A stretch of 64,000 bases of DNA from positions 33,951-97,950 of the forward strand of contig JAQBRH010000004.1 of assembly GCA_028286565.1 (NCBI GenBank), read 5' to 3'. The DNA comes from Parcubacteria group bacterium (GTDB lineage Bacteria > Patescibacteriota > Minisyncoccia > Phycocordibacterales > Zambryskibacteraceae). Made by a program: the position numbers and the translations under genes. Under the pieces are notes generated by a model. It was not told the origin of the DNA. It searched no databases and saw nothing but the letters and a program-made list of their open reading frames with translations. Shown here piece after piece: positions 4,716-40,197 of the stretch (its first letter is position 1; every line of letters begins with the position of its first letter).

Positions 4716-4723
4716 ACAAATGT

Positions 4724-5662: not shown

Positions 5663-5752
5663 ATAATGATCTCCTGTGGCAAAGCCACGGTTGGGTTTCT
5701 AAATGCATTATACCCGAAATACCAATAAAGTCAACCAGAGGACGCAAGGGTA

Positions 5753-6358
5753 TTATCTATGATATTCGACGATCTCTCCTGCTTTGATCTCTATCGGGTC
5801 AGCCCGGCGGAGATTCTTGATCTGTCCCTTGATGAGGAGGTTCGTGTGGGGCGAACGGTCGAGGGCCTTGTCGATGTGCCAGAGAGGCATAGTCCCGGTG
5901 ATCCATTCATCGCCGAATTTTCTAAGATCGAACGGTTTTGAGTAGCTTCGAAGGGTCTTCGCTCCGCTCGGCAGGAAGTATTCATGAAAATAACTCATCA
6001 CGAGTTCATGAACGTTTTTATATACGGGCTCTCTATACCGAAGCACTGCGTGGTTTGTTTTAGAGATAGCTCCCCAGCATCCCCCTACCTTAAAGAGCGC
6101 GACCACATGCTCAAAGTCGTCTTTGGTGGTCTTGAGGTCGAGGAGGAGAGGCTTGTGTCCAAGCTTCTGAAGTTCCGCAGCCCCGATGAGCGCTCCTTCA
6201 AAGCAGTGCGCGGTCCCCGCCTTCAAACTTTCTTCGACCGATCTGCAGGTTTCGCCCTTTTTCTCAAAATTGAACGGAAGGGAGTTCAAAAAGCTTTGGA
6301 TCTCGGCCGGACTTTTATATCCTTTGGATTTCGGGTTACTCATATGATTCTTGCTCAA
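5753..6358 (-). CDS. Hypothetical protein with conserved Cys/His (possible papain/transglutaminase-like fold)
   Basis: GTAHCFEGALIGAAEL ... EHVVALFKVGGCWG; only weak resemblance to TGase-like cysteine enzymes. Overlaps the downstream DedA gene start region by 23 nt. Confidence 0.4.
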   Translation of the reverse strand: MSKNHMSNPKSKGYKSPAEIQSFLNSLPFNFEKKGETCRSVEESLKAGTAHCFEGALIGAAELQKLGHKPLLLDLKTTKDDFEHVVALFKVGGCWGAISKTNHAVLRYREPVYKNVHELVMSYFHEYFLPSGAKTLRSYSKPFDLRKFGDEWITGTMPLWHIDKALDRSPHTNLLIKGQIKNLRRADPIEIKAGEIVEYHR

Positions 6359-6926
6359 AGTATTTGGAGACGAGGACGTATCCTCCGATGCCGAACACGA
6401 CCGCGAGGAGAGCGAGGAGCGAGGCTGTGCTTAGGATGCTGTCGATCTGGCTTAGATATTTGCCGAACACAAACCCGATGACGATAAGGACAAAGGTCTT
6501 TGGGACGGTGCCGATGAGGCAATAGAGCACGAACTCCCGAAGCGGCATCCCCGCCACTCCGGCCGCCACTTGGATCCAGCCTCCGACCCCGTGGAAAAAT
6601 TTGCTGATAAATACTGACTTCTTCGGATGTTTTTTAAAATGATTCTCTACCTTTTCAAGCTTGGCCTCGTCGATCCGGAGAAGCCTCAGCCATCGCCCGC
6701 CCCGACCGTGCCGAACGAGATACCCGACATAATAGTGCAGAACATCCCCGATCGTGTCGGCGGCGACGATCAAGACATACGCCGAGAGCCCGTACAAATA
6801 TCCGACGGATATGAGGAAGCCGGAGATGATGGTGACGATCGGCCCTTCGAGCACCGCAATGGGAAACAGCACCCAGTATCGATAGGTCTCAAGGAGCGAG
6901 AGGATGTAGTCGAGGCTGAGATGCAT
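6336..6926 (-). CDS. DedA/SNARE-associated family membrane protein
   Basis: VLEGPIVTIISGFL and KFFHGVGGW motifs. Start re-placed at ATG 6926 (MHLSLDY) instead of the upstream TTG/GTG of the listed ORF. Confidence 0.75.
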   Translation of the reverse strand: MHLSLDYILSLLETYRYWVLFPIAVLEGPIVTIISGFLISVGYLYGLSAYVLIVAADTIGDVLHYYVGYLVRHGRGGRWLRLLRIDEAKLEKVENHFKKHPKKSVFISKFFHGVGGWIQVAAGVAGMPLREFVLYCLIGTVPKTFVLIVIGFVFGKYLSQIDSILSTASLLALLAVVFGIGGYVLVSKYFEQESYE

Positions 6927-6927
6927 A

Positions 6928-8055
6928 TTAGGCAAGGGTATCTTTCGTGAGCGGGGGTAGCTCCGTGACCGGCACCACATTGAAAAGAAGCCGGCCGATG
7001 ATCTGGCCTCGAGAGGTTTCCACATTTACTCTCCACCTCCCGGATTCAAGACCGTACCTGTTCGAGTATGTCCTAAATCCTCCTTCTCTGCCTCCGATCA
7101 CCGGGAGGTCGATGCGGGCTTTGGTCTCCCATGTCTTTGATGCCTCATTATAATGCTGCCATTCGTGGACAATGCCGATGTCGAGCTTGGAAGGAGAGAA
7201 CACCGCGCTGTATGCATAGACCGAGTCATTCGGGAGAAGGTGAACATCGTCATAGATCTTGAAAAATCCTTTCCAACCGTACTCCTCGTACGTCACTTCA
7301 TAATTCGCTCCGTTTCGGAGAAGCGTATGGTACACCCCTCCGCCTTTTAGAGCGAGCGGCAAGGGAGGAATGAGATTGGTGAAATACATGATATTCACCG
7401 CGGCGAAGATCCCGAGCACGATCCCGACCAGGAACTTTCGTTCTTTCCTATAATCGACCGGGCTAACTTGCTTTAGGACAAAGAAGAATACTCCCATGAT
7501 AAGGAGGCTGATAAGCCCGCTTCCGACAAAGACTGTTGCTCCGATCCGATGAAAGAGGATGGGAACGGAGAAGATGGCGAAAGAGAAAAGCGAGAGGAAG
7601 AAAAGGGCGACCTGGAAGGCCAAACGTTCGTAGTGGCGCTTCAGCCGCTCGTTCGCGAGAAAGGCGAGGGCGAGAATGAGAAGAAAGGGCCAAGTGGCCG
7701 AAAGCGTGGCGCTTCGGAAATAAAAGACGATGAAGGTCGAGAGGAGGCCTCCGAAGAAGAATTGGAGGATGTTCACGAGCCAAAAGTGAGTGGCGGGCAT
7801 CTCTTCTCCCTCTTCCTTTTTGTCTTCGTCTATATTGAGGAGGATGATGGCCACCGCGACGACGAGCAGGTGAAATCCCACCCAGACATTCTCCCAAAGC
7901 GCATCAACGCGGCGGAGCGTCAGGGCGTCGAAGACGAATCCGCCGATAAGGGAGATCGAAGAGAAGGGACGTTCATAGCGTCTATAGAGGCGCTCGATCG
8001 GGGCAAATAATGCCTTAAAGACTCGCATATGGCCATTATATGCTAGACTCCACAC
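6928..8055 (-). CDS. Hypothetical polytopic membrane protein with C-terminal soluble domain (DUF2914-like)
   Basis: About 6 TM helices followed by a ~150-aa domain (GGGVYHTLLRNGANYEVTYEEYGWKGFF...). Confidence 0.5.
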   Translation of the reverse strand: MWSLAYNGHMRVFKALFAPIERLYRRYERPFSSISLIGGFVFDALTLRRVDALWENVWVGFHLLVVAVAIILLNIDEDKKEEGEEMPATHFWLVNILQFFFGGLLSTFIVFYFRSATLSATWPFLLILALAFLANERLKRHYERLAFQVALFFLSLFSFAIFSVPILFHRIGATVFVGSGLISLLIMGVFFFVLKQVSPVDYRKERKFLVGIVLGIFAAVNIMYFTNLIPPLPLALKGGGVYHTLLRNGANYEVTYEEYGWKGFFKIYDDVHLLPNDSVYAYSAVFSPSKLDIGIVHEWQHYNEASKTWETKARIDLPVIGGREGGFRTYSNRYGLESGRWRVNVETSRGQIIGRLLFNVVPVTELPPLTKDTLA

Positions 8056-20002: not shown

Positions 20003-20400
20003 TATAGTGTGTTACCCGAGAAAGAGGACGGTTCGGCCGTCCGGCAGTTCTTGTAGTCCTGATCCATAGAATTATCGCGCATGATGATCGCCTCATTGCC
20101 CTTGTTCCAAAAGACAAGCGACTCGTCCGCATTCGCATAGCGCGCCCCGGAAGCGGAGATCGCTTGGGGAAGATAGAGAGTTTTCTGTCCGCCGAATTCC
20201 AGATGGACCGAGCGCGGATAAAACTCCGCAAAGATCTCCCGGCTGTCGCATGTAAACGTCGCGGTGGAGAGAGGAGTACCCAGGATAAACACCGTTTGGA
20301 ACTTTCGGCCGAGCTGAAATCCTACGAGCAATACGGCCACAAAAAGGATAATGGCCATGGCCTGAGAGAGCGGAGTTACCCTGTTCCAGACGATCTTCAT
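20002..20400 (-). CDS. MliC-family (membrane-bound lysozyme inhibitor of C-type lysozyme)-like protein
   Basis: LPQAISASGARY and FWNKGNEAI motifs typical of the MliC family. N-terminal anchor. Start codon overlaps the PMM stop. Confidence 0.55.
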   Translation of the reverse strand: MKIVWNRVTPLSQAMAIILFVAVLLVGFQLGRKFQTVFILGTPLSTATFTCDSREIFAEFYPRSVHLEFGGQKTLYLPQAISASGARYANADESLVFWNKGNEAIIMRDNSMDQDYKNCRTAEPSSFSGNTL

Positions 20401-20402
20401 AC

Positions 20403-20657
20403 CTATAGAATATCACGAGTTCCCCCGACGAATTCGAGCTTCTGGCCCCGGGTCCATCCCTTGATCTCCGCCTCGCGCTTGGAGGCTGAGCTTCTGTTCG
20501 GGTGTTTTTCGGTGTAGAGCAATTTCTTCACTCCTTTCGATCTCGTATAATGGCCGCCCTTCCCGCCTCGGTGTTCCTTGACCCTTCTTTCCACATCGGT
20601 CGTGATGCCCGTGTACAGCGTCCCGTTTTTACATTCTAAAATATAGACAACATACAT
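20403..20657 (-). CDS. GIY-YIG nuclease family protein (UPF0213-like)
   Basis: MYVVYILECKNGTLYTGITTDVERRVKEH...GWTRGQK; start re-placed at ATG 20657. Its 3' end contains the promoter-half of the array repeat. Confidence 0.7.
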   Translation of the reverse strand: MYVVYILECKNGTLYTGITTDVERRVKEHRGGKGGHYTRSKGVKKLLYTEKHPNRSSASKREAEIKGWTRGQKLEFVGGTRDIL

Positions 20658-20697
20658 GTGCTTTTTTGCAACATGACGCAGGACTCGCATAATCTTG

Positions 20698-20970
20698 TTA
20701 GATAGCCGCCCCGTCGCCCAGATTCATATCCTGTTTATAGCGCTCAATGACTTCAGGATGGTTGCCTTCCTTGCAGTCAGCTACAAACATATCCGCGCTG
20801 GCCGCGTCAGGAAAGCTCATATAGGCCAAGGCGCTCTTGCACACGACATCGATGTTCAACTTCCCCGAGGTGTAGGTTGTGGCCGGAGTGGCTGAAGGAT
20901 TGTTTGCAAAATGGAAATATCCGCCTACTAGGACCGCCCCTACGATGACTGCGAGTAATATGTCTTTCAT
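20698..20970 (-). CDS. Hypothetical small exported protein
   Basis: N-terminal hydrophobic segment, 90 aa, no homology recognised. Confidence 0.45.
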   Translation of the reverse strand: MKDILLAVIVGAVLVGGYFHFANNPSATPATTYTSGKLNIDVVCKSALAYMSFPDAASADMFVADCKEGNHPEVIERYKQDMNLGDGAAI

Positions 20971-20995
20971 ACGGATAATTATAGCATTGTATGGA

Positions 20996-21253
20996 TTAGC
21001 CGGTAGCCAGCAAGATCCAGAGGCAGGCGAAGGCCGCCACGACTAGAATGCCCGCCGCAATCCGATAATTGGGCCTTGCGATCCTAGCGGTTACGAATGT
21101 GTAGGTAAGCCCGAGGAGGACAAAGAACACCCAGGCGAAGATAAAATCTCCCGGACCCCAATTCCATCCGCTCACGTACATGTTCCCAAAAAACGGGATC
21201 AGTAAAGCAGCCGTTGCCCAACGTACGATATTGATAATAGTTCTCTTCTGCAT
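20996..21253 (-). CDS. Hypothetical small membrane protein
   Basis: Three hydrophobic helices. Preceded by repeat R1 including the extended -10 module. Confidence 0.45.
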   Translation of the reverse strand: MQKRTIINIVRWATAALLIPFFGNMYVSGWNWGPGDFIFAWVFFVLLGLTYTFVTARIARPNYRIAAGILVVAAFACLWILLATG

Positions 21254-21260
21254 ATGTTTA

Positions 21261-21304
21261 GGATATCACGAGCCGGTCCAGTGGGCGACGTTGGAACTTT
21301 TATT
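21261..21304. repeat. Array repeat R1 (promoter-half plus conserved core)
   Basis: ggatatcacgagccggtccagtgggcgacgttggaacttttatt. Confidence 0.8.
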
Positions 21305-21342
21305 AAAATAGCCGGCCCTTGAGAGGTCGGCTTCTACAAATA

Positions 21343-21603
21343 CTAGGTACGAGTAGCAAGATTCGTGAGCGCACTGTCGACTCGCTCGAAGAAGCCGGTG
21401 TCTGACTTGCCGGCCAACCTTCGGAGGTCGGCATTCCTTTCGGCGATCGCATGAGCAGCCTCTGCCGGCATCTGGCTTTCCATCAGGATGGCCAGCATGC
21501 CCATCACTTCCCATTTAGTCGTGTATTCGGATTCGACCAGTTGCATATGAGCCTTGTACAAACGCTCTCCGACAACTTCATGAAAAGGACGGGCGCCGAC
21601 CAT
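21343..21603 (-). CDS. Hypothetical protein
   Basis: Start re-placed at ATG 21603 (RBS GAGGTG 5 nt upstream). The listed ORF uses an upstream TTG. Confidence 0.4.
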   Translation of the reverse strand: MVGARPFHEVVGERLYKAHMQLVESEYTTKWEVMGMLAILMESQMPAEAAHAIAERNADLRRLAGKSDTGFFERVDSALTNLATRT

Positions 21604-21680
21604 GATCCACCTCGGTAGTTTGTGAGCGTTCAATTCCTCTGATCAACAGAGTATCATAAATTTATGATAAGTCAATCTTA

Positions 21681-21709
21681 TTGGGTTCTATGGGGCGACG
21701 TTAAACCCT
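21681..21709. repeat. Array repeat R2 (degenerate copy)
   Basis: ttgggttctatggggcgacgttaaaccct aligns to the CTGGCCCTGTGGnACGAAGTTGGAACC core. Confidence 0.5.
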
Positions 21710-21965
21710 AGCTCAAACCAAAGTAGAAAGCGGAAGCTACTACGATCTGAGAGAAGATCGCCAACAACAGTTTCTGAAGGCCCTTCTGTGAAGGGCCGAA
21801 TACATATACCCCAAAAGATACGGCATACAGGATCATGGCCATCACTACAACTATGAGCAAATTCGGACCCTCAGGATCATTGAAGAGCGAGAACATCGTC
21901 CTAGAACATGCAAGGGATGTTATGCCCAGGATGAGCAGCGAGGTCTTTTTTGAATTGAAATTCAT
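21708..21965 (-). CDS. Hypothetical small membrane protein
   Basis: 85 aa, three hydrophobic helices. Confidence 0.4.
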   Translation of the reverse strand: MNFNSKKTSLLILGITSLACSRTMFSLFNDPEGPNLLIVVVMAMILYAVSFGVYVFGPSQKGLQKLLLAIFSQIVVASAFYFGLS

Positions 21966-21979
21966 ATGTGTAAGTATAC

Positions 21980-22025
21980 TAGAAGATCACCGGCTACCCT
22001 GTGGCTCGTACTGAAATTGGCCTTA
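21980..22025. repeat. Array repeat R3 (degenerate copy)
   Basis: agaagatcaccggctaccctgtggctcgtactgaaattggccttat. Confidence 0.5.
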
Positions 22026-22062
22026 TTTGTATATTGCCCTGAAGCGCAGTAAAATTGTGCAC

Positions 22063-22536
22063 ATGATACCAAAAAATACAATTTGTCTCTGGTTCGATAA
22101 GGATGCGGAGGAAGCGGCGAACTTTTATGCCGCCACCTTCCCCGACAGTAAAGTCACGGCGGTTTTTCATGCGCCCGGCGATTTTCCCGGCGGCAAGAAA
22201 GGTGATGTGCTTACGGTAGAATTTACCGTCTGCGGAATCCCGTGCATCGGGCTGAACGGCGGTCCCGTGTTCAAGCAAAGCGAGGCATTCTCCTTCCAGA
22301 TCGCCACGGATGACCAGGAAGAAACTGATCGCTATTGGAATACGATCGTTCAAAACGGCGGACAAGAGAGTGATTGCGGATGGTGCAAGGATCGCTGGGG
22401 AGTATCATGGCAGATCACGCCGCGTACGCTGATCGAGGCCTTCGCCGTCGGAGGGACAGAAGCAGAGCGCGCTTTTGGCGCGATGATGACAATGAAAAAA
22501 ATCGACGTCGCCGCTATCGACGCAGCCCGGGGTTAA
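22063..22536 (+). CDS. VOC-family protein (PhnB/3-demethylubiquinone methyltransferase-like glyoxalase fold)
   Basis: ICLWFDKDAEEAANFYAATFPDS...GIPCIGLNGGP motif pattern. Start re-placed at ATG 22063. Confidence 0.7.
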   Translation: MIPKNTICLWFDKDAEEAANFYAATFPDSKVTAVFHAPGDFPGGKKGDVLTVEFTVCGIPCIGLNGGPVFKQSEAFSFQIATDDQEETDRYWNTIVQNGGQESDCGWCKDRWGVSWQITPRTLIEAFAVGGTEAERAFGAMMTMKKIDVAAIDAARG

Positions 22537-22545
22537 AATTGGTTG

Positions 22546-22575
22546 CTGGCCCTGTGGGCAAAGTTGGAACTTATG
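22546..22575. repeat. Array repeat R4 (core only, no promoter-half)
   Basis: gctggccctgtgggcaaagttggaacttat; overlaps the DoxX stop codon and faces a convergent gene. Confidence 0.8.
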
Positions 22576-23014
22576 TAGTCCTCAGTCCTAGTTCCCCTCT
22601 TCTGCTTTGTAGCGCCAATATAGCCAGAACCAGAGCATAGACAATATGCTCATCAATTAGAGGATTATTGGCTGGAGGAAACAATGACAGCCACATCAAA
22701 AGCATCATCACGATCCCCGCAACCGCGCCCCACATCACACATCTATTTACCAAGAGAGTTACGCCGACAAACAAAAGACCGAGCATGAACAGCCAATCAA
22801 TGGCCGGCACGCCAGACAGGCTCTTAAACAATGGCACCAAAGGTCCGTGCGTACCAAAGCTTAAAAATCCAGATGTCGGAGAACCTCCTCTTATCCATGC
22901 ATTTTCGCTCTTTGTAGAAAAGCCTAATCCGAACACCTTATCGATAAAAGCCCACAAGAAGATGAATGACATCACAAAACGAAGCTTAAGAAATGCGATT
23001 TTTGATATGTTCAT
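22571..23014 (-). CDS. DoxX-family membrane protein
   Basis: Four TM helices with DoxX-like spacing. Confidence 0.6.
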   Translation of the reverse strand: MNISKIAFLKLRFVMSFIFLWAFIDKVFGLGFSTKSENAWIRGGSPTSGFLSFGTHGPLVPLFKSLSGVPAIDWLFMLGLLFVGVTLLVNRCVMWGAVAGIVMMLLMWLSLFPPANNPLIDEHIVYALVLAILALQSRRGELGLRTT

Positions 23015-23086
23015 TTATACAGTCTACGCCTTTTATCCATTTTTCTATATACTTCACCTAGGCTAGTACATTCACTGGAGGTATGT

Positions 23087-23677
23087 ATGACTGCACAAAT
23101 AAGCCTTACCCAACACGACGCTTCCAAGCTGCCACGCCTGGCTGCCGACCTATGGAGGATCGCGAACGGATATGGCTTTCATCCAGCCAAGGATGGGCGC
23201 TTCGAGAACGAAGCGGCAAGGGCTGACTTTGCCCACCGCCTTGATGATTTTATCTCTCATCATCTGGTACTTAAGCCGGAAGCTCCCTGCACATCTCGCA
23301 CTCTCCGCCATTTCATGGAGATGGAACGCAGACCGGTTCAGAGAAAAGAAGCCCTCGAACTGAAGAAGATAAACGAGCTCACCCTTGCCTGGGCGGCCTG
23401 CCTTCTCCTCAAGGGCTACCGGGGGCTCACCCGAGGGGAAGCGTTGAATACTCTGAAAGTCCTGGCAATTCAACTCCTTGAGAAGTTCGGATATCCGCTC
23501 CAACCCTATCGGGCGATGTTCTGTCCGATCCTAAACGCTTGGGAGAACGAAAAGGATTGGGCGGTGATACTTTCGAACGATACGGGGGTGATACAAGAAA
23601 CGCCTTGTTCATCGACCTTGGTCGTCCTACCTGACGTATGCAAGCAGTGCGTCGAAGAACATACGACCGTTCGATAG
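23087..23677 (+). CDS. Hypothetical protein
   Basis: 196 aa, RBS GGAGG upstream. Opposite orientation to neighbouring array genes. Confidence 0.5.
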   Translation: MTAQISLTQHDASKLPRLAADLWRIANGYGFHPAKDGRFENEAARADFAHRLDDFISHHLVLKPEAPCTSRTLRHFMEMERRPVQRKEALELKKINELTLAWAACLLLKGYRGLTRGEALNTLKVLAIQLLEKFGYPLQPYRAMFCPILNAWENEKDWAVILSNDTGVIQETPCSSTLVVLPDVCKQCVEEHTTVR

Positions 23678-23701
23678 CTCGACGGTCTTTTTATCTATTT
23701 T

Positions 23702-23736
23702 TACGAGCCGGCCCTGTGGTACGAAGTTGGAACTGC
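23702..23736. repeat. Array repeat R5
   Basis: tacgagccggccctgtggtacgaagttggaactgct; abuts the stop of 23736..24137. Confidence 0.8.
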
Positions 23737-24137
23737 TATACCTTAGGCATTTCAGCTATAAATGCAAACAATTCCCAAATATGACCATTAATATCGCGAA
23801 ATGCTTTTCCATACATAAAAGCTTCAGATTCGGGACTATCCTTTGTTACGTCTACAGCACCGGACGTAGTAGCTTTTTCAAAGAAAGCATCTACTTCACT
23901 CTTTGAATCAAACTGTAATGCAATGGTCAGGTTATTATTGATTGCTTCCGGATTACCTCCGACAAAAGTTGCAAATCGCTTGTCCTCCAACAACATAACA
24001 AAAGTATTTTCGTTGATCTTTGCATTAGTGGTATCTTCACTGCTGAATTGTTCATTCTTCACCATTCCTAGCGATGCAAAGAATGTATCAGTGTCAGCAA
24101 CATTTCTAATCGGCAAGTTAATGTATGTATTTTTCAT
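23736..24137 (-). CDS. VOC/glyoxalase-bleomycin-resistance family protein
   Basis: INLPIRNV...FFASLGM and ...HIWELF VOC-type beta-alpha-beta-beta-beta modules. AT-rich coding sequence. Confidence 0.6.
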   Translation of the reverse strand: MKNTYINLPIRNVADTDTFFASLGMVKNEQFSSEDTTNAKINENTFVMLLEDKRFATFVGGNPEAINNNLTIALQFDSKSEVDAFFEKATTSGAVDVTKDSPESEAFMYGKAFRDINGHIWELFAFIAEMPKV

Positions 24138-24163
24138 ATATAAAAGTATATCAAGAAAACCTC

Positions 24164-24197
24164 CAGCTGGTCCTGTGGGACGAAGGTGGAACCATTC
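24164..24197. repeat. Array repeat R6
   Basis: ccagctggtcctgtgggacgaaggtggaaccatt. Confidence 0.8.
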
Positions 24198-24209
24198 TAG
24201 GGCAGGTCC

Positions 24210-24572
24210 CTATTCCTCAGGTTCATCATTGATACCCAGCTTTGATTGAATAGCTTGTCGTATCCACCACGTCGCATAGGTTGAGAATTTATAATCAGCT
24301 TTATAATCATATTTTTCCACGGCTTTAAAAAGGCCCAGGTTACCATTTTGAATAAGATCCAATTGAGAAACATTCTGCTCGTTGTCTTTGTATGCTTCCG
24401 CAATCTTCGCTACTAATCGCAAATTCCCCTTGGCTAAAAGATTCTTTGCTTCATCATCATTATTTTCCTTAATTCTTTTAGCCAGCTTTTTCTCTTCTTC
24501 ACCGGAAATAAGTAGATATGCTGATATCTCATTAAGGTAATCTTCTAATTTTTCCTGTTCAGTTTTTTCCAT
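24210..24572 (-). CDS. Truncated sigma-70-like protein (regions 1.2-2.4 only; possible fragment or decoy)
   Basis: NLRLVAKIAEAY...LDLIQNGNLGLFKAVEKYDYKADYKFSTYATWWIRQAIQ matches RpoD region 2. Only 120 aa; lacks regions 3-4. Confidence 0.6.
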   Translation of the reverse strand: MEKTEQEKLEDYLNEISAYLLISGEEEKKLAKRIKENNDDEAKNLLAKGNLRLVAKIAEAYKDNEQNVSQLDLIQNGNLGLFKAVEKYDYKADYKFSTYATWWIRQAIQSKLGINDEPEE

Positions 24573-24623
24573 GATATGTATCTAAACGTTTATTCACTAG
24601 GATGCTTTCCCTTTAAAATCATA

Positions 24624-24660
24624 AGAGCCAGCCATGTGGGACGATGTTGGAACCTTTTTT
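24624..24660. repeat. Array repeat R7
   Basis: agagccagccatgtgggacgatgttggaacctttttt. Confidence 0.8.
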
Positions 24661-24662
24661 AA

Positions 24663-25193
24663 CTATTCCTGAGGAAAACCATACTTCTCACGTATTTCCC
24701 TAGTGTATTGCTCTATTGGTTCTAATCCAATCTCTGCCCTTCTTTCGTCAACGTGTTTTTCATCTTCTATAGGCTCAGGTCTGAAGTTTCCATCCCTATC
24801 TCTAAATTGAGTTCCGTAAACCTGTAAACCATGCTCACTTACTCGTATTCGATCTTCTAAGTACGCAACATGTTTTCTATCTACCTCCTCGGGCGATTCT
24901 GCTTTCATAAGTTCAAGACACTTTTTTTGAAAATCTTTATCGTGATCTGCGTGTTGAATTAATAGCCATGCATTACGAACACCTATTGCTCCAACTTTAG
25001 ATGTAGTGGGCCATCCGATTTCAACAACAATTTCCTTTAATCTTTCTGTATTTCTTTTATCAATTTCGTTATCCCAATACTCATCATCTACAAGATTCTT
25101 TTCTCGCATATCTTGGTCTACCTTAACCATTGTTTCTAATTCAGAAGCGATCTCTGGATTAAGCATGACTTTAGGAGTTTCTTCATTATTCAT
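24663..25193 (-). CDS. Hypothetical protein
   Basis: 176 aa, acidic. GWPT...NAWLLIQHADHD motif. No family assigned. Confidence 0.5.
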   Translation of the reverse strand: MNNEETPKVMLNPEIASELETMVKVDQDMREKNLVDDEYWDNEIDKRNTERLKEIVVEIGWPTTSKVGAIGVRNAWLLIQHADHDKDFQKKCLELMKAESPEEVDRKHVAYLEDRIRVSEHGLQVYGTQFRDRDGNFRPEPIEDEKHVDERRAEIGLEPIEQYTREIREKYGFPQE

Positions 25194-25200
25194 ATACCTA

Positions 25201-25246
25201 GAATATCACGAGCTGGGCCCTGGGGTACGAAGCTGGAACCTATTTT
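25201..25246. repeat. Array repeat R8 (promoter-half plus core)
   Basis: gaatatcacgagctgggccctggggtacgaagctggaacctatttt. Confidence 0.85.
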
Positions 25247-25827
25247 ACAGCTATAAAGTGAAAAACATGCCAGTGCTTCGTCTCTCCCGCAGCAGTTTTG
25301 CCATCTTTTTCTTCTTCACTGAACTCCGCAATCTTTAGTCCCTGCAGCAATGACTCCGCCTCTTCTTTAGTCTGAAATGTCATATCTCTACCTTCTACAT
25401 TCCACTCATCTCTATCTCCGAAGAATTGTCCGACAAATACACCGCCTGGTTTTAACGACTTAATAATTGATTGAATAACATCATTAAATTTTCCTTTAGA
25501 AGTAAACGGTAAAGAATACTGAGCGTTAATCAGATCATACGCACCTTCTACAAAATCAAAATCTTCAAAAGAACTTATTTCGTATGTGACTTTTTCGGCG
25601 GGAAGTTGCTCGAGCACTTCTCCAGAGACTGGGTTCTTATCGACAGCTGTAACATGCTCAAATCCTACAGACAAAAGATACCTCGTATCATTAAGTGCCC
25701 CTGATCCAAGATCCAATGCTTCATGTTTGTCTTGAACTAATTCGACAGCGTTAACCAAAGAAGGTCTTGGTGGCGTTTCTTTAGTTTGTTCGTAGTATTG
25801 CTCCCAGTTATGTTCACTCATGGGCAT
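25240..25827 (-). CDS. Class I SAM-dependent methyltransferase (TehB-like)
   Basis: LDLGSGALNDTRYLL motif I, VTAVDKNP, LKPGGVF. Confidence 0.7.
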   Translation of the reverse strand: MPMSEHNWEQYYEQTKETPPRPSLVNAVELVQDKHEALDLGSGALNDTRYLLSVGFEHVTAVDKNPVSGEVLEQLPAEKVTYEISSFEDFDFVEGAYDLINAQYSLPFTSKGKFNDVIQSIIKSLKPGGVFVGQFFGDRDEWNVEGRDMTFQTKEEAESLLQGLKIAEFSEEEKDGKTAAGETKHWHVFHFIAVK

Positions 25828-25837
25828 ATGATATCAG

Positions 25838-25878
25838 AATTTCGCTAGCTGGCCCTGGGATGAGGTTGGAACCTTTAT
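25838..25878. repeat. Array repeat R9
   Basis: gaatttcgctagctggccctgggatgaggttggaacctttat. Confidence 0.8.
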
Positions 25879-26399
25879 ACCGTAACAATCTTCAGATCTG
25901 CCGTATCAATTGTGCCTTTATAGAGAATATGAGGAACCAGATGGAATCCCATGGGGATCATGCCTGCTTCAATAGTTTCCTTATAGTATTCAGTGGTTGC
26001 CTCCGGTAGATAGGCATATTTCTCGACTTCATTCGGATCATAGGCCAGATAATCATCTTCTGGAGGAGGAGTCCCCTTTTCGCGTGGGGAGTTTAAATAC
26101 ACCACAGTCTTTTCTAGCTCTAGCTTTTCTGCAGGGATCTCAACATAACTTAAGGCGAAACCTTTTCCCAACTTCCGCATTTCCCTATCAACAATGCTCG
26201 GATTCAATGCACTCAGATGAAGTACGTCGTTCCACAAACAACCCAGCCTCTTTATTCTTCTTTGCAACAAAATTTCACGGCCTTCGTACTTCTTTACATG
26301 TGCCTGATACGCATCGGGGAAAATGTTTTTAAGCGTATTCAAGGGATATAGTACGGTTCCCTGCATTCCTTTGGGAACTATATGATAGACGAATGCCAT
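25875..26399 (-). CDS. Hypothetical protein
   Basis: 174 aa. No repeat between it and the downstream isochorismatase gene, suggesting a two-gene unit. Confidence 0.5.
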   Translation of the reverse strand: MAFVYHIVPKGMQGTVLYPLNTLKNIFPDAYQAHVKKYEGREILLQRRIKRLGCLWNDVLHLSALNPSIVDREMRKLGKGFALSYVEIPAEKLELEKTVVYLNSPREKGTPPPEDDYLAYDPNEVEKYAYLPEATTEYYKETIEAGMIPMGFHLVPHILYKGTIDTADLKIVTV

Positions 26400-26429
26400 A
26401 TGGGAGTAGTGTAACAGAAATTCGTTTAA

Positions 26430-26936
26430 TCAAAACTTGATCAAGAGATCCGCTGTATTTTCATAAAAAGACGTATGGGCCTTAAACCAGGTCTTATTTT
26501 TACGAGACAACCTTCCCTCCTTGTTGCTTACACTAGCTATAAGACTCTCTGCCGTTGAAACTTTATAGCCTCTTTTCATTGCTCCTATTGCTGTATCCTG
26601 AACGCATGCATTGGCATTAACTCCAATAATAATGAGGTTCTTTATCTTTAGGCTACGAAGAATTTTATCCAGATGGGTTTTTGTGAATCCACTATTGCTC
26701 TCCTTAATGATTATTTCTTCCGCGACTTTGCGAATTAATTTTTCTAATATAGGAGTTGTTCTTCCTCTGTCTTTGCCTCCAGCTTTATACTCAAAAACAA
26801 CCACCGGAATATTTTCTTTTATGCATCTACGAAGGATCTTACCTTGCTCTGCAATTAATTTTTCCTTAATATGAGCAGGAAAATTCTTTAGGAAAAAATC
26901 CTGCATATCCATCACAACGACTGCGGCATTCTTCAT
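26430..26936 (-). CDS. Isochorismatase-family cysteine hydrolase
   Basis: VVVMDMQ, conserved Lys, and the GVNANACV catalytic Cys motif. Confidence 0.7.
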   Translation of the reverse strand: MKNAAVVVMDMQDFFLKNFPAHIKEKLIAEQGKILRRCIKENIPVVVFEYKAGGKDRGRTTPILEKLIRKVAEEIIIKESNSGFTKTHLDKILRSLKIKNLIIIGVNANACVQDTAIGAMKRGYKVSTAESLIASVSNKEGRLSRKNKTWFKAHTSFYENTADLLIKF

Positions 26937-26960
26937 ATTTTAAGTATACCAGCACAAGTT

Positions 26961-27000
26961 TCGCTAGCTGGCCCTGTAGTACGATGTTGGAACCTTTGTA
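26961..27000. repeat. Array repeat R10
   Basis: tcgctagctggccctgtagtacgatgttggaacctttgta; followed (minus strand) by TGGTATACT extended -10 and a leaderless ATG. Confidence 0.8.
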
Positions 27001-27042
27001 GAAAAAGAAAAAGACCGCCTGTAAGCGATCTGCTAGTCAGAA

Positions 27043-27450
27043 TCACAGTCCTCCAAAAACATGGAGACTGTCCTTTCCCGAAGAACCTCTTGGATAGTAT
27101 TCCAGCGTGAACTCCACTGAATCTGGCATGCCTTCTGGAAGATGAGCGATCTGGTTTCCACGATACGGGATACCCCGAAAGAAGATGTTTATGAGCGATG
27201 TCAAAGCGTCAGCGATCTCTTCTTTTGAAAATTGGAAACGCTCTGAGTCAGAGATTTCACGCGGATCAGTTCCCCTCTTTGTTTCCTTCCCTATTACCTC
27301 CGCACTTATTTCAACTTCGAGGATTTCGGGTGGTACAAAGGAAGACCGAGCGATCCTGTAAGGAAAAAATACATGCCCAGTTCTCCTTGCGATGAATTCA
27401 GCAATCGCATCACCGAATTGCTGGGCAGCAATTCTTTCGTAATCAGGCAT
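27043..27450 (-). CDS. Hypothetical protein
   Basis: Start re-placed at ATG 27450 (MPDYERIAAQQ). The listed ORF starts at a TTG. Confidence 0.45.
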   Translation of the reverse strand: MPDYERIAAQQFGDAIAEFIARRTGHVFFPYRIARSSFVPPEILEVEISAEVIGKETKRGTDPREISDSERFQFSKEEIADALTSLINIFFRGIPYRGNQIAHLPEGMPDSVEFTLEYYPRGSSGKDSLHVFGGL

Positions 27451-27527
27451 AACACCTTCCAAGGCAAGATGTGGTCTGTGGTAGAACTTATCTGGTAATT
27501 AAAATACTACTTATTACAGTAAAGTCA

Positions 27528-27562
27528 AGTTGCTGGCCCTGTGGCACGAAGTTGGAACTTAT
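27528..27562. repeat. Array repeat R11
   Basis: agttgctggccctgtggcacgaagttggaacttat; followed (minus strand) by TTGACT-N16-TATTTT promoter-like sequence. Confidence 0.8.
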
Positions 27563-27565
27563 ATA

Positions 27566-27590
27566 AAAACCCAGGATTACCTGGGCGTTG
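27566..27590 (-). terminator. Rho-independent terminator at the 3' end of 27577..27792
   Basis: CCCAGG-ATTA-CCTGGG hairpin followed on the minus strand by TTTTTAT; overlaps the stop codon. Confidence 0.5.
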
Positions 27591-27792
27591 TAGAAGGCGC
27601 TTTGTAATTCGGCTGCGCCTCTGGTAGATCAAGCAGTGTTCTAGCCACAAGGGCACACACAAGAGCACAGAGAACAAATGTAACTCTCGTACTCTTTTGC
27701 TTGAATGTTACTCCCTTCATGAAAAGCAGGAGGGCGAGGAGGCCAAGGATCAAAGAAGCGGCAAGCGGGTGTGCAAACATGTGTTTCTCCAA
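27577..27792 (-). CDS. Hypothetical small membrane protein
   Basis: 71 aa, two hydrophobic helices, RBS GGAGA upstream. Confidence 0.4.
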   Translation of the reverse strand: MEKHMFAHPLAASLILGLLALLLFMKGVTFKQKSTRVTFVLCALVCALVARTLLDLPEAQPNYKAPSTTPR

Positions 27793-27864
27793 AAGATGTG
27801 AAGATTCTACTGCCAGGGGTCGTTTCTGAATATAAATTACAACTAAAAAAGTCTTAAGTCAAAT

Positions 27865-27900
27865 CTGCTGGCCCTGTGGTACGAAGTTGGAACTTTTTAA
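27865..27900. repeat. Array repeat R12
   Basis: ctgctggccctgtggtacgaagttggaactttttaa; followed (minus strand) by TTGACT-N17-TAATTT. Confidence 0.8.
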
Positions 27901-28382
27901 AGCTTCCCTCTTAATTCCAAGGCTCTTTCCATTATCCTTTCGCCTCTCTTCCCCCAATCAAAGTATTGCTTATATTCCTTAGGATCAATAAGTTTTATTT
28001 CTTCTATCTCGTTATCTGGATCTTTCACAAAATCACCATAAGGTTCAACTATACAAACACTCCTTGTCTGCCTAATAATTCTCCCCGGCTCATAAACATC
28101 TTGGAAACCTATTAGCGATTGGCTGAGAACTCGCATATTAGTTTCTTCCCTTACCTCCCGGATCACTGCTTCTTCATATGTTTCTCCTGGCTCTATTCCT
28201 CCGCCTGGCGGCATCCAGCCACTTTTTGGGTGATGGACTACTACCATTTTATCTCCATAGAAACAGAAAGCATGAACCCCTTGGAGCAACTTCCCTTCCA
28301 TATCAAATAACGGGTCTGATTCTTTATATATAATTTCAACTTCCTGACCCAATCTGTTTACATGAATAGATTTAATTTCCAT
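27897..28382 (-). CDS. NUDIX hydrolase
   Basis: NUDIX box GGGIEPGETYEEAVIREVREETNM. Confidence 0.75.
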   Translation of the reverse strand: MEIKSIHVNRLGQEVEIIYKESDPLFDMEGKLLQGVHAFCFYGDKMVVVHHPKSGWMPPGGGIEPGETYEEAVIREVREETNMRVLSQSLIGFQDVYEPGRIIRQTRSVCIVEPYGDFVKDPDNEIEEIKLIDPKEYKQYFDWGKRGERIMERALELRGKL

Positions 28383-28390
28383 CAGTTAAG

Positions 28391-28435
28391 ACTACCACGA
28401 GCTCGCCCTGTGGTACGAAGTTGGAACCTTTTTAC
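28391..28435. repeat. Array repeat R13 (promoter-half plus core)
   Basis: actaccacgagctcgccctgtggtacgaagttggaacctttttac. Confidence 0.85.
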
Positions 28436-28516
28436 AACCTTCTATTATTGACAACATCTAGGACATGATTCATATTGAACCCAGAGTACAACCCAACAAC
28501 GAATAGGAGACAAGAC

Positions 28517-28768
28517 ATGTCGAACGAGAAGTATTTCCGAGATCTGGCACCTGGGGAATTGTTTTCCTTCCAGTCGCCCACTTCCGATCCAGTCGTGGAG
28601 CCGGCCTCATACCTCGTCAAACTGAATGAGGATGAGTATCTGATGGAGCGAGGACATGGAACATTGCGCTTCATGAACTTCGAAAAGTCTCGCACTCTAG
28701 TAGTGAGCCACGGCATGGAAGACCAGGCCAATTTCGAACAGATGCTCGCTGCTTGGCCAAGGGAATAA
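28517..28768 (+). CDS. Hypothetical protein (opposite orientation inside the array)
   Basis: RBS AGGAGA 7 nt before ATG 28517. Preferred over the overlapping minus-strand ORF 28432..28791 on composition and RBS. Confidence 0.4.
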   Translation: MSNEKYFRDLAPGELFSFQSPTSDPVVEPASYLVKLNEDEYLMERGHGTLRFMNFEKSRTLVVSHGMEDQANFEQMLAAWPRE

Positions 28769-28782
28769 TCCCCGGCCCCTAC

Positions 28783-28830
28783 TTCCCACACATTCGCTTA
28801 ATTGAAAGGTGTGGGGATTTTCATAACTAA
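28783..28830. terminator. Bidirectional terminator between convergent genes
   Basis: CCCACAC...(19 nt)...GTGTGGG hairpin followed by GATTTTCAT. Confidence 0.45.
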
Positions 28831-28863
28831 AATAATCGAACGCCTGGTACTAAGTTTTAGAAT

Positions 28864-29367
28864 TTAGAGAACACACTTCCTAAGGACATCTGCAGCAATG
28901 CGACAATCTTCAAGCGCATCGTGCGACCCTCTTGGTTTTGCACCAAAAGCTTGAAAAATATCTTCAGAATTCATCCCTCCCTGGTAGCCGGTTTTAAGTA
29001 GATGAGTGTAAGCGATAGGCCAAATATCCAACACATGATAGTCATACTGTTCTTCTCCATTTCTTGAAGCTGTAAGCGTTCTTAAATGCTTCATGTCGAG
29101 CTCAGCCACAAATGAAGCGATGATCACATTGCTTCCGAATCTTTCAAAGAATTCTTGTCCTACTTCTGCTTGAGATGGAGCACCATTAAGCATCTCTTGA
29201 GTGATGCCGGACTTTACACTTGATCTCCCCTGCAGATTTGCGTGTATATAACTCACAAAAGAATCTTTTTCAGCCAGAGTGTCTTTATCTAGGAGAATGG
29301 CACCTATTTGTTTTGGTGCTCTCATTCCTTCAAAATCTATAACCAAAATATCTTTGGGGAATTTCAT
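28864..29367 (-). CDS. DEDDh-type 3'-5' exonuclease domain protein (RNase T/oligoribonuclease-like)
   Basis: VIDFEG N-terminal acidic motif and a C-terminal HDALEDCR motif. Confidence 0.55.
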   Translation of the reverse strand: MKFPKDILVIDFEGMRAPKQIGAILLDKDTLAEKDSFVSYIHANLQGRSSVKSGITQEMLNGAPSQAEVGQEFFERFGSNVIIASFVAELDMKHLRTLTASRNGEEQYDYHVLDIWPIAYTHLLKTGYQGGMNSEDIFQAFGAKPRGSHDALEDCRIAADVLRKCVL

Positions 29368-29370
29368 ATC

Positions 29371-29420
29371 TCTAGAATATCACGAGCTGGCCCTGTGGGA
29401 CGAAGTTGGAACCTTTTTAG
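29371..29420. repeat. Array repeat R14 (promoter-half plus core)
   Basis: tctagaatatcacgagctggccctgtgggacgaagttggaacctttttag; fills the whole 49-nt stop-to-start gap. Confidence 0.85.
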
Positions 29421-29842
29421 CTGTTTGACTCTTTGAAATCTCCAAATGCTTTACGGATAACGTCAAGTAAGGGCTTCTTATCTGCATAAACATATTCTTT
29501 GCCCACCCTTCGAACGAATTCCTCTGGACCAACTGGCCATCCATAAAATTCTAAGGTCTCTCGATTTTGTGTTAAAAGATGAGAAAGAGTTTCAGGTTCA
29601 TATACAAACAAAGCTCCTTGGGTACCAATTAAAGTTGTGTCTCTATTTGTGAGTAGAACAGGAATTAAGCCATTTTCTTTTGCATGATCAATTTCTTCTT
29701 GAACAGAAATATGAAAATATCTCTCCATAGAATCAACGGGTAAATATCCTACGGATTTGTGAGGGCCGAGATTGCGAATGTGTTCAAGGGCTTCTAACCT
29801 TTCTTTCTCAAATAGATCAGATGCGGTTGGTTCTTGCTCCAT
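29417..29842 (-). CDS. Hypothetical protein
   Basis: 141 aa, AT-rich coding. Last gene of the array before the tRNA-Gln region. Confidence 0.45.
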   Translation of the reverse strand: MEQEPTASDLFEKERLEALEHIRNLGPHKSVGYLPVDSMERYFHISVQEEIDHAKENGLIPVLLTNRDTTLIGTQGALFVYEPETLSHLLTQNRETLEFYGWPVGPEEFVRRVGKEYVYADKKPLLDVIRKAFGDFKESNS

Positions 29843-29859
29843 AGATTAATACTATAACA

Positions 29860-30074
29860 AAGTTCGAGTCCCTATTGGTTGCTGCCGATCAGGGACTCGC
29901 TCCTTACAGGAACAGGACAGAATTCGTCAGGGACTCGGTCACTCATAAAATTCTCCTGAATTTTTGTGCGACCCCGCCTCGGCCCGCCGGCCTCCGGCTT
30001 TCGAGTCCGCGCGACGCTTCGCATGTGCGAAACTGCGCCTGATCGGCAGCAAAACACGCTGCGCTTTCGTTTTG
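29860..30074. repeat. Mosaic of direct and inverted partial copies of the tRNA-Gln 3' end (T-arm/acceptor)
   Basis: 19-nt direct copy gctgccgatcagggactcg at 29881-29899 (identical to 30075-30093). Inverted T-loop fragments at 29862-29873 and 30003-30012. Inverted copy cctgatcggcagcaaaac at 30038-30055 forms an 18-bp hairpin with the tRNA 3' end. Confidence 0.75.
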
Positions 30075-30145
30075 CTGCCGATCAGGGACTCGAACCCCAA
30101 TTAACCGCTCCAGAGGCGGTCGTCCTACCATTAGACGAATCGGCA
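30075..30145 (-). tRNA. tRNA-Gln (anticodon CTG)
   Basis: Hand-folded cloverleaf: acceptor TGCCGAT/ATCGGCA with U1-A72, D-stem GTCT/GGAC, anticodon stem ACCGC/GCGGT with loop CTCTGGA, T-loop TTCGAGT, discriminator G. Four-nt variable loop. Confidence 0.6.
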
Positions 30146-30208
30146 ATTACACACAACAAACCGGCAATACCGGGAAAGAATAGCTTAAAACAAGCCCTAT
30201 TTCAAGGT

Positions 30209-30664
30209 ATGGATCTCGAGTATACTAAGCGCATGAACTGGGAAAAGAAATTCACAGACTCCATCGGGTCTAAAACATCGGTCGTCTTGCACACGATCTT
30301 TTTCATCATCATGCTTGTCCTCCCCTTCTTCGGAGTGCGGGTCGACACGGTCCTCCTCGTCCTGACCACCCTCGTGTCCTTGGAGGCCATATATCTCGCC
30401 ATTTTTATCCAGATATCAGTGAACCAGAACACCGCGAGCCTCGAAGAGGTCGAAGAGAACATCGACGAGATCCAAGAGGATGTCGACGAGATCCAAGCGA
30501 ACGTCGATGAGATCTCCACGGACATCGACGAGATCCAAGGAGATGTGGACGAGATCCAGGAAGACGTGCGAGAGGACAAGGACGCCGAAGGAGACCTCGA
30601 CCACATCCAAGCTATGCTTGAAAAGCTTCTCGAAGAAGTGAACAGATTAAAGAATCAAAAATAA
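30209..30664 (+). CDS. DUF1003-family membrane protein with C-terminal acidic octad repeats
   Basis: SIGSKTSVVLHTIFFIIM...LVSLEAIYLAIFIQISVNQN DUF1003 core. C-terminal (V/I)DEIQxxV x5 encoded by a 24-nt tandem repeat (30457-30576). Start re-placed at ATG 30209, downstream of the tRNA. Confidence 0.55.
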   Translation: MDLEYTKRMNWEKKFTDSIGSKTSVVLHTIFFIIMLVLPFFGVRVDTVLLVLTTLVSLEAIYLAIFIQISVNQNTASLEEVEENIDEIQEDVDEIQANVDEISTDIDEIQGDVDEIQEDVREDKDAEGDLDHIQAMLEKLLEEVNRLKNQK

Positions 30665-39745: not shown

Positions 39746-39995
39746 TGAATTAATATATCAACCAAAATAGAACCTGGCAGATCCTTATATAAGTGTTGCG
39801 GGTACCCGATTTGCACGGATGCCTACAGGTTATGAGCCTGTCGAGGTACTGCTCCTCCAACCCGCTATCCCTATATTATACGCCATCTATTCCAAAAATC
39901 AAGATTTTGTATTATAGTTCCTGGACTTGCCGGTGTACTCTGTACGTCGGCTGCGTTCGGAGATAGAGGGTGTACACATCCTCTCCCCCTCACTT

Positions 39996-40066
39996 GCCGG
40001 TGTAGTTCAATGGTAGAACGGAGGACTCATAAGCCTTAGACAATGGTTCGATTCCATTCATCGGCA
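39996..40066 (+). tRNA. tRNA-Met/Ile2-type (anticodon CAT), elongator-like
   Basis: GCCGGTGTAGTTCAATGGTAGAACGGAGGACTCATAAGCCTTAGACAATGGTTCGATTCCATTCATCGGCA; G1-C72 pair, A31.G39 mismatch in anticodon stem. No encoded CCA. Confidence 0.6.
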
Positions 40067-40197
40067 CAAGGTGTGTTGTGACAGCACAAGAATTCTGTTA
40101 CATTACATCCGATTAGGGCACTTGCGGCAGTACTAAATCGTACATCCGCTCGGCTCGGAATCAATAGAAAAGCAAGCTTCTCAATTGTTCCTCACTT

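Follow-up and report, generated by a model that had tools for sequence, protein, structure and literature searches.

A conserved gene-less module and copies of the tRNA-Gln(CTG) 3' end at an insertion hotspot of Patescibacteria

The 64,000-nucleotide stretch of contig JAQBRH010000004.1 from a Parcubacteria group bacterium (hereafter the window) carries on its minus strand an intact tRNA-Gln(CTG) gene, which is followed on its 3' side by direct and inverted copies of its own 3' end and, behind them, by an array of small genes. The copies are genuine and non-random. Judged from the letters and from related contigs, they are the arms and internal boxes of one gene-less module and of its truncated neighbour, and they find no support as independent footprints of integration. 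The module belongs to a family with a conserved structure, which sits at an insertion hotspot where one relative shows an empty site and another a bounded island with a recombinase gene. We consider that the unit of the window is probably, though we say so with some reserve, a miniature or remnant integrative element produced by site-specific recombination at the T-loop and heading a gene-cassette array of ~9.5 kb.

Patescibacteria have tiny genomes and the routes by which they acquire genes are little known. In this case, a single tRNA gene is the entry point for varied cargo across many members of the group: defence genes (Shedu, SMODS, AbiEii and a type I restriction-modification system), but also a gene for a reverse transcriptase and small accessory cassettes. 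A gene-less unit, conserved, structured and undescribed in databases, marks the place of entry. If the unit is a recombination substrate, it would represent a miniature integrative element or a cassette platform of a new kind, and its covariance model would provide a sequence handle for the variable regions of these genomes; if it is only a remnant, the locus would not differ from other tRNA integration sites except for an arm preserved unusually well.

Copies of the tRNA end and comparison of its flanks

The minus-strand tRNA-Gln located at 30075-30145 by a preliminary description of this DNA was recovered with both Rfam and ARAGORN, the call of the latter (30074-30145, minus strand) being 1 nt longer. 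The perfect direct copy of its 3' end, originally given as 19 nt at 29881-29899, is in fact 21 nt long: positions 29879-29899 are identical to 30072-30092 (TTGCTGCCGATCAGGGACTCG on the plus strand) and extend from the T-loop to 3 nt beyond the discriminator. On the tRNA strand, the repeated block (CGAGTCCCTGATCGGCAGCAA) is made of the last 18 nt of the tRNA and a trailer of 3 nt, and its second, perfect occurrence lies 193 nt downstream (29899-29879). With up to three mismatches allowed, this 21-mer has only two matches in the 64 kb, and two matches were obtained in none of 100 shuffles, which rules out a chance origin of the copies. The shorter direct copy noticed at 29927-29938 also exists, with 13 of 14 positions matching over 29927-29940 and a clean part, CGAGTCCCTGA, at 29937-29927 on the tRNA strand. 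Among the inverted pieces, GTTCGAGTCCCT at 29862-29873 is a perfect 12-nt complement of 30084-30095, as described, and the 18-nt inverted copy at 30038-30055 indeed forms a perfect inverted repeat with the tRNA 3' end (30069-30086) around a 13-nt loop; the part of this arm at 30038-30052 complements equally well the distal copy (29879-29893, 15 nt, perfect). The remaining T-loop piece, reported at 30003-30012, is real and had to be shifted slightly, to 30000-30008 (TTCGAGTCC); the coordinates were otherwise correct within a few bases. All these copies lie at the edge of a low-GC stretch (GC of 0.38-0.44 at 24-30 kb vs ~0.52-0.59 on the flanks). No further core copy with up to three mismatches is present at the far end of the array.

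The duplicated tRNA end had been taken as the sign of an integration hotspot with several independent footprints. Comparison of the tRNA-Gln flanks supports the first part of this proposal, that the duplicated 3' end marks a site-specific integration site and hotspot. The organism was placed in Patescibacteria by the neighbouring MFS transporter, and the order MFS ... tRNA-Gln(CTG) is kept in three related genomes (contigs L002, L003 and L004), with different genes past the tRNA in the window and in each of them. The closest relative, L002, whose MFS gene has 87% protein identity, has at a distance of 155 nt a direct copy that matches the tRNA end in 26 of 27 nt, together with an inverted T-arm piece, and CTGTTCCTGTAAGGA immediately precedes the copy both there and in the window. 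No copies of the tRNA end exist in L003 and L004, the former having a native trailer and no repeats. Repeats with the same left boundary were found in L002, L083, L118, L158 and L163; all repeats start at the CG of TTCGAGT in the dyad-symmetric T-arm. A block of identity running from the T-loop past the 3' end is reportedly the mark of the T-loop class of tRNA attachment sites. Moreover, nine contigs with a tRNA 98.7-100% identical to that of the window have each a different sequence directly 3' of it. The tRNA of the window is 100% identical to those of L002, L090, L131 and L181.

The empty tRNA-Gln site to be expected in a related genome was found in L181 (Ga0207952_1000907), where ftsX, the identical tRNA and one small open reading frame (ORF) are followed by homologues of the window genes 6928-8028, 5753-6343, 3035-4201, 1085-2968 and 80-1066, in the same order and on the same relative strands. 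The flank is thus collinear with window positions 80-8028, and ~22 kb are held in the window between the tRNA and this conserved flank. On the other hand, contig JACCDR012215953.1 (covered by the adjacent pieces L169 and L113) has a tRNA-Gln and, in the same orientation and 11,176 nt apart, a second TTCGAGTCCCTGATCGGCAGC. They bound an island of 11.2 kb whose genes encode Shedu SduA, a C5 methylase, a 448-aa large serine recombinase (LSR; L169 3574-4920), an N6/N4 methylase, an S24 repressor-like protein and SMODS. The direct repeat is here of 21 nt, and a type I module stands directly before the distal copy. A smaller case is Ga0105050_10001182 (adjacent pieces L157 and L112), where two cores 1,385 nt apart surround a single pilin-like gene and a native-type trailer, CAACTCGTGCTAGG, follows the second core.

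The trailers point in the same direction of a displaced end. Contigs without modules have a conserved trailer after the tRNA (CCA encoded, CAACTCG.G.TAGG...; L003, L125, L133, L142, L153), and in several module-bearing contigs the native trailer type is found after the distal copy instead. The trailer of the distal copy in L158 resembles the tRNA trailers of L087 and L127, the one in L112 resembles that of L133, and the one in L136 is identical to part of L085. The native trailer is itself a conserved unit of ~110 nt (..GAGACGCGTC..CTATTCTGAAA..GCATACCTGCTGAGAGCAGTA..), seen in L125, L133, L142, L153, L087, L096, L130 and L082, which ends in a terminator and has no Rfam match. As for the locus of the window itself, the sole public contig with the exact neighbouring protein (L001, Logan SRR13312974) breaks in the middle of the tRNA-Gln gene, its start corresponding to window position 30118, an effect expected on assembly from a repeat or from strain variation at the site.

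The structured module and its family

Read along the tRNA strand, the module comprises a complement arm (A box), a first hairpin (H1), a complement of the T-loop (B box), two further hairpins (H2 and H3) and the direct core copy, in ~170 nt (Table 1). The 172 nt between the two 21-mers hold neither a gene nor an integrase. The window copy is a composite, with a body like that of the L158 unit that ends in the truncated core at 29937-29927, followed by an L002-like H3 tail and the full core. The same box as the second B box, CGAGTCC(A/C)GACTCGA(A/T)C, adjoins tRNA-Gln genes in L118, L119 and L149, and in the window a full core plus CCAAT stands between the core and this second box. The promoter-like stretch that comes next resembles the sequence just 5' of a tRNA-Gln gene in L119, a likeness seen by eye and only suggestive. 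One unit and the stub of a second therefore explain every fragment of the preliminary description, and what had been read there as the footprints of repeated integration are components of one conserved structured module copy and of a truncated second, shared by many related contigs.

Table 1. Features of the tRNA-Gln locus of the window, in the order in which they are met along the tRNA strand
Feature	Positions	Strand	Basis or remark
tRNA-Gln(CTG), intact, U1-A72, G73, CCA not encoded	30075..30145	-	Rfam RF00005, 55.8 bits vs gathering score 29
Core copy 1: from C56 in the T-loop through the 3' strands of T-stem and acceptor to G73 and a 3-nt trailer	30072..30092	-	repeated segment
Spacer GAAAGCGCAGCGT, 13 nt	30056..30068	-	relatives have a GC-rich stem and T-run terminator here
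A box, 18-nt perfect complement of tRNA 3' end and trailer; module 5' arm	30038..30055	-	repeat search, folding
H1 hairpin ..AGTTTCGCA CA TGCGAAGC..	30011..30037	-	minimum free energy structure; H1 position covaries in relatives
B box GGACTCGAA, complement of T-loop TTCGAGTCC	30000..30008	-	repeat search; invariant GGAC..GAA columns in alignment A2
Module body, GC-rich hairpins then AAAAATTCAGGAGAATTTTATGAGTGAC	29938..29999	-	alignment A4, fold; ~85% identical by eye to L158 body
Truncated core copy CGAGTCCCTGA, 11 nt	29927..29937	-	repeat search; full core occupies the same position in L158
H3 hairpin GTTCC-TGTAA-GGAGC, 5-bp stem, middle pairs covary, conserved TGTAA loop	29899..29913	-	
Core copy 2: perfect 21-nt direct repeat, 3' arm of module	29879..29899	-	repeat search; covariance-model match
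Second B box AGGGACTCGAAC, start of a further truncated module	29862..29873	-	repeat search; absent from L002
Promoter-like stretch TTTGTTATAGTATTAATCT, directly 5' of first cassette ATG (29842)	29843..29861	-	by eye; suggestive only
Cassette array, about 13 small genes, ~9.5 kb	20396..29842	-	most genes followed by GTTCCAACTTCGTCCCACAGGGCCAGC

A scan of metagenome contigs with the 19-mer CGAGTCCCTGATCGGCAGC returned 100 stretches, about 57 of which are tRNA-Gln genes of this type, the remainder being displaced copies or unrelated chance matches. In about a third of the distinct tRNA-bearing contigs a common grammar follows the tRNA on its 3' side: a terminator-like hairpin, the A box GCTGCCGAT.. 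(complement of the acceptor 3' strand) and H1; the B box ..CAGGGACTCGAA, which complements both T-stem and T-loop, then H2, which is long, and GG(T)GTACTG; and finally a 5-bp H3 with a TGTAA loop, before the direct core copy. From the 14 units that align well (alignment A2), RNAalifold recovered both H2 and H3, and compensatory changes are seen in 10 of the 17 pairs that it predicted. Over the full structure, 85% of the cells pair in A2 vs 70% in shuffles and the covariation score is 0.38 vs 0.13, neither value being matched in any of 500 shuffles; controls with a slid structure pair at 44% or less. A covariance model (R1) built from A2 gave 27 matches at E<1e-3 in 23 sources, namely the one in the window (29881-30050, minus strand, 52.4 bits, E about 4e-10) and 26 more in 22 related loci. 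When these 27 matches are aligned (alignment A3), 31 of 37 pairs change on both sides, including those of the closing stem, and 87% of the cells pair vs 67% in shuffles, with none of 500 reaching the observed values and slid controls at 46% or less; being fitted to model R1, A3 has pair counts that lean towards the structure. All three hairpins covary. The window copy, which is predicted to fold at -89.4 kcal/mol (z = -6.7), closes on its own two arms, and the reverse strand scores far lower with the model.

Such a covarying structure would also be the one of a gene for a small RNA derived from tRNA-Gln and copied by duplication, whose ends would form an acceptor/T-stem-like helix of 12-21 bp, the same as in the tRNA, with the function residing in H1-H3, GGUGUACUG and the UGUAA loops. 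The changes on both sides of most pairs, present as well in the independent A2 alignment, the conserved single-stranded motifs, the strong fold of the window copy, the difference between strands and the terminator-like hairpin that follows many cores in relatives are all in line with this explanation. However, the A box comes too close after the preceding terminator to leave space for a promoter, a large number of copies are fused, truncated or interrupted in the H3 loop by insertions of ~70 nt (L157, L119, L115, L112), and the pair counts of A3 carry the bias already mentioned. Moreover, the pairs of H2 and H3 are almost purely Watson-Crick, with G.T (51) barely above A.C (36), and G.U is not enriched over A.C. 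A search against Rfam 15, including its tmRNA, Y RNA-like and tRNA-like families, returned only tRNA matches, both at the gathering score and at E<=1, and ARAGORN found no tmRNA. Altogether, an RNA gene seems fairly unlikely. The near-absence of wobble pairs leans towards a constraint at the DNA level, in the form of palindromic sites or single-strand hairpins, although the structure, the conserved loops and the terminators after many cores keep the RNA reading alive.

Some known RNAs were considered and set aside. The likeness to tmRNA, permuted tmRNA, group I introns, Y RNA-like molecules or hammerheads is one of resemblance only, the searches with ARAGORN and Rfam being negative and the acceptor stem lacking G3.U70. 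An intron-containing or split tRNA is not compatible with the 'upstream-type' copies, which have no 3' acceptor strand, and a guide like the bridge RNA of IS110 was discarded by reasoning only, in view of the missing DEDD recombinase and of long stems unlike guide loops.

The 18-bp hairpin between the tRNA and the A box deserves a separate view, since it had been suggested to act as a terminator or attenuator of the tRNA transcript, in which case the other fragments would be incidental. As RNA, the tRNA end and the A box form in the predicted minimum free energy structure a 19-bp helix (-50.8 kcal/mol, z = -4.1) at the cost of the acceptor and T stems, and relatives do keep a canonical terminator at this place, within the loop of the corresponding hairpin; in L002 it is an ordinary CCCGC..GCGGG TTTTGTTTT at the position of the self-hairpin of the window. 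In the window this terminator is lost: the GC-rich hairpin is present but is followed by CGCAGUUUCG instead of a U-tract, and a terminator scan gave no minus-strand site downstream of the tRNA. Being part of the conserved module, the arm pairs just as well with the distal core, and the formation of a hairpin by which the tRNA is unfolded would be harmful. A terminator or attenuator role seems very improbable, and the hairpin is best seen as a module arm that came to lie beside the tRNA when the terminator, still present in its loop in relatives, was lost.

Origin of the module and the enzyme involved

In the explanation that we favour, the segment from T-loop to 3' end of tRNA-Gln(CTG), CGAGTCCCTGATCGGCAGC, would be the crossover site of integrating elements in this lineage of Patescibacteria. 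Each insertion would rebuild the tRNA from element DNA and push the old 3' end downstream, with a direct repeat as the result, and recombination at the core would have made the arrangement of the window. The DNA between its 21-mers is not an island, but one 170-nt gene-less member of the repeat family, in which the A and B boxes form a 5' arm that complements the core, H1-H2-H3 come next and the core is the 3' arm; behind it stand the B box of a second, truncated unit and then the array of single-gene cassettes. The unit may represent the conserved end region of larger islands, able to persist and multiply at the site by carrying the recombination core together with its inverted partner, and it would act as DNA rather than as an RNA gene.

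The distribution of the units in relatives suggests that the module itself has moved. Tandem copies occur in L106, L171, L083, L088 and L115, in runs of two or three units. In a second configuration, found in L149, L118, L119, L124, L125 and L142, positions 1-53 of a tRNA-Gln are followed by an H1-H2-H3 unit, CGAGTCC, a promoter-like stretch and a complete tRNA-Gln. Moreover, in L096 (12974-13090, minus strand) such a unit stands after a duplicated 24-nt 5' part of tRNA-Thr(GGT), just upstream of the complete gene. The presence of the H1-H2-H3 unit beside duplicated 5' parts of tRNA-Gln and a tRNA-Thr(GGT) therefore argues for movement between sites.

With regard to the enzyme, the contigs L082 (from IMG/VR), L104, L110, L116 and L160 have an LSR gene at no more than ~0.4 kb from the 3' end of tRNA-Gln. 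The proteins of L082, L110 and L169 have a Resolvase, Recombinase and Zn-ribbon architecture by Pfam, and those of L104, L116 and L160 were recognized as homologues only by tblastn. Between L104 and L110 (also L116), the segment with the LSR gene is found inverted next to the same tRNA-Gln flank, with the junction at the T-arm-like GGGGGTTC / GGGACGCGAGGCGGGGGTTC; in L110 a type I restriction-modification system adjoins this segment. No tyrosine integrase or IntI-type protein was detected among 30 other ORFs of at least 220 aa encoded within 4 kb downstream of the tRNA in other contigs. An LSR acting in trans or now lost is the best candidate for the enzyme, linked to the site by association only. 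Reverse-transcriptase (RVT_1) genes lie a few hundred bases past the tRNA-Gln module in L100 (2378-3274) and L122 (1246-2406); being on the opposite strand and convergent with the module, they were read as cargo, and a link with retrons or diversity-generating retroelements was discarded.

Several observations weigh against an integrative origin of the unit by this route. The ORFs of at least 160 aa in the window have no recombinase or transposase by Pfam, and tblastn detected no LSR homologue in its 64 kb. In the complete island of JACCDR012215953.1 (L169), the LSR gene lies 3.6 kb from a tRNA that has a native-type trailer, and the distal copy of the window is not followed by the native trailer type. 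Serine integrases normally require identity of 2 bp only, and a repeat of 21 nt is not their signature. The search of viral contigs with the H3/core motif, the H1 hairpin and the 27-nt repeat of the array found nothing relevant to the module. A homologous module is common to the window, L002 and L158, which may be old and vertically inherited rather than recently mobile. Finally, the apparent selection on structure, with conserved loops and three covarying hairpins plus closing stem, is unlike a plain scar and would fit an RNA gene or a folded single-strand site.

As to its kind, the locus is a tRNA attachment site with displaced 3' ends, of unusual form. As in islands and prophages integrated in tRNA genes by crossover at the T-loop (attL/attR), we find an intact tRNA at one end, a direct repeat from the T-loop to the 3' end plus a few bases, variable and compositionally odd DNA alongside, an empty site in a relative and, in a related contig, an island that carries a recombinase and the same repeat. 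In contrast to them, the window has 172 gene-less nt between the repeats, no integrase in this bounded segment (the segment of JACCDR012215953.1 does contain a recombinase) and a conserved structured module alongside, and the recombinases at this site in relatives are large serine ones instead of the usual tyrosine integrases. The unusual points are thus a conserved structured gene-less unit made of the core and its complement, its stacking across Patescibacteria, the serine recombinases and its position at the head of an array.

A second parallel is offered by the composite islands of the staphylococcal cassette chromosome (SCC) type, which reside at rlmH (orfX) and are moved by Ccr large serine recombinases. 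In both systems there is a large serine recombinase (here that of related contigs), the 3' end of a conserved gene serves as attachment site, each junction bears short direct repeats and the elements build up in tandem, remnants without recombinase included; the two differ in the target, a protein gene there and the T-loop of a tRNA here, in the size of the units, here down to about 150 nt or one gene, and in that the link between LSR and repeat is here one of association only. In size (about 110-190 nt), lack of ORFs, terminal inverted arms, strong predicted folding and copy number, the modules also recall the bacterial miniature inverted-repeat transposable elements such as Correia elements, ERIC and RUP. 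The window unit has the terminal inverted repeats, no ORF and a length below 300 nt, but its relatives are not dispersed, being confined to tRNA-Gln, one tRNA-Thr and the array behind tRNA-Gln, their arms copy the end of the target tRNA itself, and no parent insertion sequence (IS) is known; instead of many dispersed copies with target-site duplications and an autonomous IS, there is one copy in 64 kb and no transposase was found.

The cassette array and its surroundings

The array behind the tRNA lies within the low-GC stretch and its genes have unrelated functions, including a GIY-YIG protein, a membrane protein, a 3-dmu-9_3-mt domain protein, DUF6624, a methyltransferase, an isochorismatase, a NUDIX protein and an RNase T-like exonuclease. 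A repeat of ~27 nt (GTTCCAACTTCGTCCCACAGGGCCAGC) stands 3' of nearly every small gene from 29.4 kb to about 20.4 kb, with nine copies at up to six mismatches and none elsewhere in the window, and TCGTGATATTCTA..ATG, with the start codon of the next gene, often comes after it. By eye, this repeat is loosely like the tRNA core (TTCG..TCCC..N7..CAGC). Behind the tRNA-Gln of L002 and L004, where the genes are different, it likewise stands 3' of ORFs, and it is present in seven further contigs. Modules and cassettes are interleaved in L002. One cassette of the window has a homologue downstream of tRNA-Gln in L004, and the 147-aa membrane protein cassette (22571-23014) has one in L002 (2474-2905) across the tRNA, between the MFS gene and a DUF948-like gene. 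The array fits a stepwise insertion of small units at a core-like site, which is not a proof of it.

Such an organization brings to mind integrons and CALINs (clusters of attC sites without an integrase), and the module could be a folded single-strand recombination site like attC, with tRNA-Gln, modules and array forming an integron-like capture platform whose recombinase is encoded elsewhere. About 13 same-strand, single-gene cassettes of unrelated function with a conserved site at their end, the recurrence of this site behind tRNA-Gln in relatives with other genes, the interleaving with modules, the homologues of two cassettes in other genomes (behind tRNA-Gln in L004 and outside the array in L002), a structure conserved above sequence with inverse-core and core arms, and the lack of an integrase beside the array would all be understood in this way. 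However, neither the window nor the 30 neighbouring ORFs tested have an IntI-type integrase, and several cassettes have promoter-like stretches of their own. The array is moreover anchored on a tRNA. The 27-nt repeat is in one orientation only, its inverted partner was not found in the repeat search and the junctions were not folded, so that the imperfect palindrome of attC at each cassette end is not seen, the inverse-core and core arms being present in the gene-less modules only. No description of such a system was found in the literature searched. We regard an integron-like platform as quite unlikely.

A broader possibility is that Patescibacteria have an undescribed system of gene capture in which the module does the work of recombination, a system anchored on the T-loop of tRNA-Gln and stacking single-gene cassettes and gene-less modules that each end in a core like the tRNA end; an LSR or another enzyme would act in trans, and the module would be a folded DNA site or a guide-like RNA. 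The literature searched holds no description of this element, and we consider this proposal unlikely as it stands, keeping the miniature or remnant integrative element as the favoured explanation.

Some other features of the array and its neighbourhood can be mentioned. A stretch CTCGTGATATTCTA(G/T)AG.TATG ends at the start codon of several cassettes (29363-29386, 28378-28400, 25189-25212, 21249-21272 and 20396-20420) and looks like an extended -10 promoter with a leaderless start. The cassette at 24210-24572 (minus strand) is a 120-aa ORF with sigma-70 regions 1.2 and 2 only, that is, a truncated sigma factor, and an exact protein look-up for the cassette 29417-29842 gave no match. Beside the tRNA, the DUF948-like coiled-coil gene contains at 30441-30558 a 21-nt tandem repeat of 5.6 copies encoding D/E-I-Q heptad-like units. 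Further along the window, ARAGORN reports a tRNA-Met at 39795-39866 (minus strand), unreported by Rfam at the gathering score, which faces a second tRNA-Met (39996-40067) and a tRNA-Asp, and a second low-GC stretch (0.37-0.45) at 58000-62000 encodes a 614-aa TPR / adhesin-E-like protein (59132-60976).

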